Made by a program: the position numbers and the translations under genes | In this document: positions 38,286-38,425 of the stretch, piece by piece | Layout of the letters: every line of letters begins with the position of its first letter | Numbering within the stretch: position 1 is the first letter of the stretch | Notes under the pieces: generated by a model | The model's database searches: none | Told to the model about the DNA's origin: nothing | Seen by the model: only the letters and a program-made list of their open reading frames with translations | Source of the DNA: Escherichia coli | GTDB taxonomy: Bacteria; Pseudomonadota; Gammaproteobacteria; Enterobacterales; Enterobacteriaceae | Length of the DNA: 64,000 nucleotides | Strand: one strand, 5' to 3' | Assembly: GCF_029227855.1 (NCBI RefSeq) | Contig: NZ_CP074356.1

Positions 38286-38301
38286 TGTGATTACGATCAC
38301 A
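38286..38301. promoter_or_regulatory. Consensus CRP site TGTGA-TTACGA-TCACA in the yqcE / ygcW divergent region
   Basis: Perfect TGTGA-N6-TCACA palindrome read directly. Confidence 0.6.
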
Positions 38302-38358
38302 TTAGCGATTATGCCCTTATGATAAAAATTATCTCCAGTTACCAGAGATAATGAGAAA

Positions 38359-38401
38359 GGTAACTTCCCTCTCGCGGGGGAAGTTACCTTTCTTTTTTTT
38401 T
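38359..38401 (+). terminator. Intrinsic-terminator-like hairpin in the ygcW 5' leader: GGTAACTTCCC / GGGAAGTTACC (11-bp stem, 8-nt loop) followed by TTTCTTTTTTTTTT; candidate attenuator
   Basis: Perfect inverted repeat plus T tract read directly, about 25 nt before the ygcW start. Confidence 0.6.
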
Positions 38402-38425
38402 GCCTTACGGAAATTGGAGCTAACT

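Follow-up and report, generated by a model that had tools for sequence, protein, structure and literature searches.

Mirrored leader terminators in the yqcE/ygcW spacer of Escherichia coli as predicted targets of the GlpP-family protein YgcP

The divergent yqcE/ygcW spacer of Escherichia coli, analyzed here within a stretch of 64,000 nucleotides (nt) of contig NZ_CP074356.1 (assembly GCF_029227855.1; hereafter, the window), carries two mirror-image leader modules. In each of them an intrinsic terminator precedes the first gene of a presumed operon (ygcW-ygcUSRQ on one side, yqcE-ygcE on the other) and overlaps a smaller alternative hairpin, P1, whose loop presents two GAGA repeats. We consider it probable that in both leaders CRP-activated transcription is gated by antitermination dependent on YgcP, a putative RNA-binding protein of the GlpP family encoded in the same gene cluster. 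A first-pass annotation of this region had read the ygcW leader as a switch of this kind. That reading stands for ygcW and was incomplete, for the switch comes as a mirrored pair that extends to yqcE-ygcE and includes a second CRP site; the yqcE-side terminator, the second CRP site, the yqcE antiterminator element and the ygcW P1 had all been overlooked. The ygcP gene and its neighbors make up an uncharacterized part of the E. coli K-12 genome. YgcP now has two predicted RNA targets, for which P1, the GAGA repeats, the terminator and the predicted transcription starts can be given at nucleotide level (Table 1).

The ygcW terminator heads the list of terminator-like matches in a scan of positions 35000-47000. 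Its core, GGTAACTTCCC (38359-38369), pairs with GGGAAGTTACC (38378-38388) and is followed by TTTCTTTTTTTTT (38389-38401). The 11-bp hairpin with a 13-nt T-rich tract reported at 38359-38401 by the first-pass annotation is thereby recovered, as part of a longer stem of 19 bp. The T-tract ends 24 nt before the ygcW ATG at 38426 (about 25 nt had been estimated), and no plus-strand gene lies upstream, yqcE being divergent. The ygcW P1 is the top covariance-model match in the window, with 87 bits, and its loop contains tandem GAGA repeats at 38345-48 and 38353-56. In the minimum free energy fold of the same leader, CUCCAGUU (38333-38340) also pairs with the Shine-Dalgarno-containing AAUUGGAG (38411-38418); nothing equivalent is seen in the yqcE module, and part of the 5' partner falls upstream of the predicted ygcW start.

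The yqcE leader reproduces this arrangement on the opposite strand. Its P1 scores 79.6 bits with the covariance model and likewise exposes a tandem GAGA (38186-83 and 38179-76). When 38276-38432 on the plus strand is set against 38254-38100 on the minus strand, a nearly gap-free alignment of 157 columns results, in which CRP site, TG-n-TA, shared motif, terminator, T-run, ribosome-binding site (RBS) and ATG fall in register in both modules. The window contains exactly two matches to TTACYAGAGA-N3-6-GAGAAARGTAA (0 expected), and the covariance model (R1), run with its filters off, returns no third copy in these 64 kb. The repeats in the loop of P1 have the form GAGA-N3-4-GAGA. In both leaders the 5' arm of the terminator takes in the second GAGA together with the 3' strand of P1, so that P1 and the terminator are mutually exclusive. 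By RNA folding, P1 alone is weak (-6.7 kcal/mol in ygcW and -1.4 kcal/mol in yqcE) as against the terminators (-30.6 kcal/mol, z = -7.8, and -20.5 kcal/mol, z = -5.75, respectively; z = -6.4 for the whole ygcW leader), which implies that termination would occur by default and that a factor would be needed to hold P1.

The model we propose consists of two mirror-image modules, each with a class II-type CRP site, an extended -10 element, a leader of about 65 nt (P1, then the terminator), an RBS and a start codon 24 nt on. In the absence of glucose, cyclic AMP (cAMP)-CRP would activate both promoters, and RNA polymerase would by default halt at the leader terminator. YgcP loaded with its inducer would bind P1 and the tandem GAGA on the nascent RNA, and this binding would sequester the 5' arm of the terminator and permit read-through into ygcW-ygcUSRQ and yqcE-ygcE. 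By analogy with glycerol-3-phosphate and GlpK, the inducer may be the phosphorylated product of the FGGY-family kinase YgcE. Such a model would explain why the locus might be silent even with CRP bound. The leader anatomy, its conservation and covariation and its resemblance to GlpP targets are observed, and CRP binding at site 1 comes from the literature. YgcP binding, its dependence on a ligand, the transcription starts and the extents of the operons are the parts of the model that we infer, and the proposal of catabolite-activated transcription gated by antitermination has held in all parts that can be tested in silico.

Conservation of the leaders was assessed in 64 loci from a genome scan with YgcP; these were gathered through ygcP, so that occurrences of the motif without ygcP fall outside the sample. 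The cluster formed by ygcE-yqcE<>ygcW-ygcU(-ygcS-ygcR-ygcQ) plus ygcP is kept across the Enterobacterales, and all 50 Enterobacterales loci with an intact yqcE/ygcW spacer have two copies of the element, giving 100 copies, or 102 with the two in the window. Loss of the hairpin from loci that keep ygcP, which the first-pass annotation had named as evidence against a switch, is hence not what these 50 loci display. A search of the collected loci with R1 recovers the 100 copies, the two in the window and one further copy in Thalassobacillus. Leader variants are seen in Serratia, Pantoea and Erwinia, which have CGAG or GAGC or carry a 4-nt insert.

The suggested check by RNA folding and covariation across Enterobacteriaceae leaders brought out P1 as an alternative hairpin that overlaps the 5' arm of the terminator and is conserved with covariation. 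In the model-based alignment (A5; 101 rows, cut-off E = 1e-4) P1 is 94.3% paired, as compared with at most 54% when the partner columns are slid, and a clean MAFFT subset (A4) gives the same picture for P1. Column pair 12/42 is G-C in 66 copies and A-U in 27, and is never unpaired; pair 17/37 is U-A in 67 and C-G in 23. At pairs 13/41 and 14/40, all 20 single-side deviations are U-G wobbles. Since these pair only in the RNA of the leader strand, they argue for an RNA element and not for a DNA palindrome. Pairing in the terminator reaches 88% across species, with nine pairs showing changes on both sides. Within E. coli, an 801-nt region enclosing the leader, 100% identical to NZ_AP045174.1, is present in 5068 of 5426 complete genomes. 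Identity over the 75-nt leader amounts to at least 99% in 4465 of 5063 E. coli genomes, while that over the 801-nt region is mostly 95-99% and reaches at least 99% in only 24 genomes, a distribution consistent with purifying selection on the leader. BLAST places the 75-nt leader at a median of two sites per E. coli genome, which we assume to be the two leaders of this spacer. The spacer of Limnobaculum eriocheiris (L032 13840-13990) has collapsed to a single palindromic terminator between A9 and T9, and promoters, CRP sites and P1 are all absent from it. This looks like the product of recombination between the two inverted terminator copies, which would have deprived both operons of their promoters.

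The perfect CRP palindrome recognized by the first-pass annotation (site 1) is the sole TGTGA-N6-TCACA match in the window, where 0.06 matches would be expected and 5 of 100 shuffled sequences contain at least one. Its center lies 44.5 nt upstream of the G of the ygcW P1 GTTAC, a spacing that is kept in orthologues. Site 2 aligns with site 1 in the module alignment and is centered 43.5 nt upstream of the yqcE P1; the two centers are 57 bp apart, and the predicted promoters point away from each other. In all 100 Enterobacterales copies a CRP-like site (at least 8 of 10 half-site positions; best or second-best match counted, distance taken to the G/A of (G/A)TTAC) is centered 42.5-45.5 nt upstream of P1. 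A TG-n-TA element, read by eye, recurs in the upstream sequences of these 100 copies at constant distance from both the CRP site and P1. In ygcW its TG lies 27 bp from the CRP center, and no good -35 element was seen. From this arrangement we predict transcription starts at 38335-38337 for ygcW and at about 38193-38195 for yqcE. A start 1-3 nt before P1 places the TG at -15/-14 and the CRP center at about -41.5, so that the architecture, which depends on the predicted start, would be that of a class II CRP promoter with an extended -10, as in galP1, a class II CRP-dependent promoter of this type. The ygc promoters have in common with such promoters the TG one base upstream of the -10 hexamer, and with the predicted start the CRP center would also match in position, at some 41.5 bp before it; they differ in being two, in facing away from each other and in having starts that are predicted. 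The literature supports the action of CRP at this spacer on several counts. A PhyloScan prediction points in the same direction, chromatin immunoprecipitation sequencing (ChIP-seq) of CRP in enterotoxigenic E. coli (ETEC) lists exactly the site 1 16-mer for ygcW/yqcE (PMC4287617), Footprint-seq yielded an in vitro dissociation constant (Kd) of 1.7 nM for CRP at site 1 (PMC12871828), and yqcE-ygcE is among the Crp-activated transcription units (PMC8085971).

The claim that YgcP is a GlpP-family homologue is firmly borne out: residues 12-184 align to model positions 1-173 of the 173 in Pfam PF04309 (G3P_antiterm) with E = 1.6e-62. An ungapped alignment of 185 residues gives 28% identity between YgcP and a B. 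subtilis-type GlpP, and PDB entries 3kts and 1vkf are relatives of YgcP. According to PMC9604022 and PMC7430163, GlpP of B. subtilis together with glycerol-3-phosphate binds the glpD leader and disrupts a promoter-proximal terminator, and these papers credit the work on antitermination by GlpP at the glpD, glpFK and glpTQ leaders to Holmberg & Rutberg 1991/1992 and Glatz et al. 1996/1998. The GlpP compared with YgcP is encoded on a B. subtilis-type glpP-glpF-glpK-glpD contig, which a primer-derived 25-mer picked out among metagenome contigs. The glpD leader of this contig reads GGUC-CU-GAGA-CGAG-GAGA-GACCACAGC...GCUGUUGUGGUCUC-UUUUU and the glpFK leader UGUG-AUG-GAGA-ACUCG-GAGA-CCACAGC...UUGUGGUUUUUUU, to be compared with GAGA-UAAU-GAGA-AAGGUAAC in ygcW. 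The two systems have in common a full-length PF04309 regulator, a target in the 5' untranslated region near the promoter that is followed by an intrinsic terminator, a tandem GAGA abutting or overlapping the 5' arm of that terminator, an FGGY kinase among the regulated genes and catabolite control layered on top. They differ in that the ygc host is Gram-negative and uses CRP instead of CcpA; in that the ygc genes encode a short-chain dehydrogenase/reductase (SDR), a flavin adenine dinucleotide (FAD) oxidase, electron transfer flavoprotein (ETF) subunits and major facilitator superfamily (MFS) transporters and are not glp genes, the ligand being probably not glycerol-3-phosphate; in the length of P1, 6-7 bp with covariation in ygc versus 4-5 bp in B. 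subtilis; and in the presence of two mirror-image copies in one divergent spacer.

Leaders of the same architecture, with other P1 sequences, lie beside ygcP homologues in Listeria, Bacillus, Thalassobacillus, Lacticaseibacillus and Faecalibacterium, and a ygcU-ygcP-yqcE-ygcE core is found in Listeria and Bacillus. The Listeria leader, AGUUGCU-AGAGAAUUGAGAUA-AGCGACU followed by a terminator, comes directly after a TTGACT-17-TATA promoter; the Thalassobacillus copy is matched by R1 with E = 2e-10; a Bacillus sp. has two copies, and Faecalibacterium a GUUUC/GAAAC helix. In Lacticaseibacillus, GGUUA-GAGAGAAGAAGAGAGA-UAACC is located upstream of an operon of Fe-ADH, glpP-like, FGGY and YgcU-like genes. 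Lachnoclostridium has a weak 4-bp helix that is not significant (R1 E about 0.85). The architecture extends to canonical glp loci: it is present in Enterococcus, where glpP is followed by the glycerol-3-phosphate dehydrogenase operon, and the glpF leader of a glpP-MIP-FGGY-DAO locus (L073) reads GUGUAUUU-G-GAGA-AAAAG-GAGA-AAAUACAU. Repeats of the form GAGA-N3-5-GAGA, within a short closing helix and overlapping the terminator, are shared by these glp leaders, the B. subtilis-type glpD and glpFK leaders and the two in E. coli. In 14 leaders from distinct lineages the tandem-GAGA loop is closed by a helix of 4-9 bp (mean 6.4), which is significant against shuffled flanks in nine. The sequence of P1 changes between lineages; the GAGA repeats and the overlap with the terminator stay. 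No clear leader was found at L070 and L071, where GlpP homologues adjoin unrelated genes. Two PF04309 paralogues (3512-4117 and 5001-5558) occur in a high-GC locus, L072, near genes for an FGGY kinase, a DAO dehydrogenase, DeoC and Fe-ADH, and no clear tandem-GAGA terminator was seen by eye in the leaders of this locus. From Lacticaseibacillus and Listeria to E. coli, a GlpP-like protein keeps company with an FGGY kinase and a YgcU-like FAD oxidase (FAD_binding_4/FAD-oxidase_C) (L067 5807-10668; L056-L063 8470-14000). This suggests that the three belong to a conserved catabolic core, not yet named, and the product of its kinase may serve as the inducer.

None of these elements is catalogued. 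A scan of 37900-38600 against Rfam 15 gave a best match of 26 bits, where the gathering score is 90, nothing in Rfam matches the canonical glp leaders of L069, L066 or L073, and RefSeq annotates no feature under the leader match. The covariance model and the cross-phylum examples are thus provided for an RNA target of the GlpP family that is absent from Rfam. In the searchable literature, the GlpP mechanism is described for B. subtilis only, no paper joins ygcP, which is mentioned in 11 papers, with an antiterminator, ygcW is mentioned in 12 and the leader RNA is not described; in a 2025 review of RNA-binding antiterminators, GlpP has zero occurrences.

Other antitermination systems offer instructive parallels. 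In the BglG/SacY/LicT family, a weak ribonucleic antiterminator (RAT) hairpin, stabilized by the protein, shares nucleotides with the 5' arm of a stronger terminator, and the default state is off. The switching logic proposed for the ygc leaders is the same as that of these systems, which include the E. coli bgl operon. YgcP, in contrast, is a PF04309 protein without CAT or PRD domains, the RNA sequence is another and control is not by phosphorylation through the phosphotransferase system (PTS); neither the annotation nor an ncbifam scan of ten ygc-cluster proteins revealed a CAT-PRD protein. The ygc system would work like a RAT system and is not a member of that class. HutP and TRAP are RNA-binding regulators that read short repeated triplets (NAG, GAG or UAG, for example). 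HutP is described in PMC7430163 as blocking a terminator. The most conserved feature of the ygc element is, in a similar manner, a pair of short purine repeats (GAGA...GAGA) in a single-stranded loop, but the repeats are two instead of 6-11 and are framed by a covarying helix, and the protein belongs to another fold family. By every criterion that can be tested on the sequence, the ygc system appears to belong to GlpP-type protein-dependent antitermination, with CRP class II-like promoters in a mirrored arrangement.

More generally, we are mildly inclined to regard the ygcW and yqcE leaders as the E. coli members of a widespread, uncatalogued class of protein-binding RNAs serving the whole PF04309 family. 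The class would consist of a terminator-overlapping hairpin that presents a tandem GAGA, and would be represented in Bacillus, Listeria, Enterococcus, Lacticaseibacillus, Clostridia and Enterobacterales. In the same broader reading, YgcP would respond to a phosphorylated metabolite distinct from glycerol-3-phosphate, and E. coli K-12 would possess, besides BglG, a second and hitherto unrecognized catabolic antitermination system, which would control an orphan ETF-linked oxidation pathway.

The leader could also work without YgcP, as a metabolite-sensing riboswitch or as a factor-independent attenuator responding to NusA or nucleoside triphosphate (NTP) levels. Mutually exclusive hairpins such as P1 and the terminator are also typical of riboswitch expression platforms, and the binding of YgcP to the leader is a prediction. 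Before the terminator, however, there is nothing bigger than a 7-bp stem with a 15-nt loop, and nothing that matches Rfam; the element co-occurs with PF04309 genes across phyla, with P1 varying and the GAGA staying; and it resembles the leaders of GlpP-controlled operons of B. subtilis. We regard such a YgcP-independent switch as unlikely. Quite unlikely, too, is the notion that the hairpins are plain, unregulated terminators acting as insulators against stray or antisense transcription or as permanent dampers. The A-runs before and the T-runs after both hairpins do lend them a partly bidirectional look, and L. eriocheiris retains just one such hairpin between the genes. Yet each hairpin stands between its own conserved CRP promoter and the gene, where a permanent terminator would silence the operon, and the opposite strand of the ygcW hairpin has a poor T-tract (CATTATCTCT). 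An insulator would also leave unexplained the conservation of P1 and the GAGA and the covariation of the P1 5' strand with the 5' arm of the terminator.

Palindromic operators keep symmetric half-site changes and can mimic compensatory covariation, and GTTAC-N17-GTAAC might on that account be a DNA operator to which some dimeric transcription factor binds shortly after the start site. The single-side deviations speak against it, as all 20 of them are U-G on the transcribed strand and would be mismatches in DNA, with A-C on the other strand. Moreover, the half-site sequence is wholly different between lineages and the overlap with the terminator is always kept, and no DNA-binding regulator turned up in scans of ten ygc-cluster proteins (ncbifam for the ten, Pfam for YgcP only). 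An operator is very unlikely in our judgment. It is scarcely credible, finally, that the hairpin forms part of a longer ygcW coding region beginning at the in-frame ATG at 38351. An open frame (38351-39211) does run in phase with ygcW, and this ATG, within the P1 loop, is open in Escherichia; of 100 orthologous leaders, however, only 13 have an in-frame open upstream ATG, the differences in length between leaders are not divisible by three and RefSeq places the start at 38426.

Several observations weigh against YgcP-dependent antitermination as formulated here. The motif does not precede ygcP itself. Serratia microhaemolytica (L045 7431-8000) has a ygcP orthologue with 70% identity in an unrelated gene context, and both the ygc genes and the motif are absent throughout its locus of about 18 kb. 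The compensatory changes in P1 within the Enterobacterales amount to a handful of independent events, and kinship inflates their counts. The closing helices of the B. subtilis-type glpD and glpFK leaders measure only 4-5 bp and are not individually significant, for which reason the protein may read the single-stranded GAGA repeats and not the hairpin. A genomic study based on systematic evolution of ligands by exponential enrichment (SELEX) counts the ygcW/yqcE spacer among constitutive-promoter regions and assigns it an H-NS mark (PMC3946193). The promoters of that study rest on pattern-based hexamers different from those predicted here, and H-NS silencing may constitute a third layer of control, possibly keeping the locus silent regardless; transcripts from those promoters would still traverse P1 and the terminator. 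Lastly, experiments that address termination, read-through or the binding of RNA by YgcP are absent from the searchable literature.

Table 1. Coordinates of the features discussed, in window positions.
Feature	Position	Strand	Remarks
ygcW leader intrinsic terminator	38353..38401	+	19-bp stem 38353-38394, T-tract to 38401
ygcW antiterminator hairpin P1 (predicted)	38337..38365	+	AGUUACC 38337-43 / GGUAACU 38359-65
yqcE leader intrinsic terminator	38131..38179	-	GAGAAAAGUAA...UUACUUUUCUC then U9; ends 24 nt before ATG (38106)
yqcE antiterminator hairpin P1 (predicted)	38168..38193	-	AUUACU 38193-88 / AGUAAU 38173-68
CRP site 1, serves ygcW promoter	38286..38301		TGTGATTACGATCACA; perfect palindrome
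CRP site 2, serves yqcE promoter	38229..38244		TGTGAGAGTAATCACG (minus-strand reading CGTGATTACTCTCACA); 9/10 half-site positions
Predicted extended -10 of ygcW promoter	38320..38328	+	TGaTAAAAA; TG-n-TA recurring at fixed distance
Predicted extended -10 of yqcE promoter	38202..38210	-	TGtTATTTC; in register with ygcW -10, conserved across species
ygcW-ygcU-ygcS-ygcR-ygcQ, presumed regulated operon	38426..43779	+	Annotation, family scans; operon presumed from short intergenic gaps
yqcE-ygcE, presumed regulated operon	35324..38106	-	MFS transporter, FGGY-family kinase; annotation, family scans
ygcP, proposed trans-acting factor	43926..44501	-	GlpP-family (PF04309) putative RNA-binding antiterminator

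In the RefSeq annotation, the gene order around the spacer is ygcE(-) yqcE(-) <> ygcW(+) ygcU ygcS ygcR ygcQ, followed by ygcP(-) ygcO(-) ygcN(-). According to annotation and family scans, the products of the ygcW operon are an SDR, an FAD oxidase, an MFS transporter and the beta and alpha subunits of an ETF. None of the cluster enzymes reaches an NCBIfam equivalog cut-off in the family scan, and the regulated genes are not glp genes. Farther out, the identical RefSeq record (L001) annotates a clustered regularly interspaced short palindromic repeats (CRISPR) array between queE and ygcE, at 34048-34686 of the window (L001 5149-5787), and a small frameshifted hypothetical pseudogene adjoining ygcG, at 32758-32899 (L001 3859-4000).

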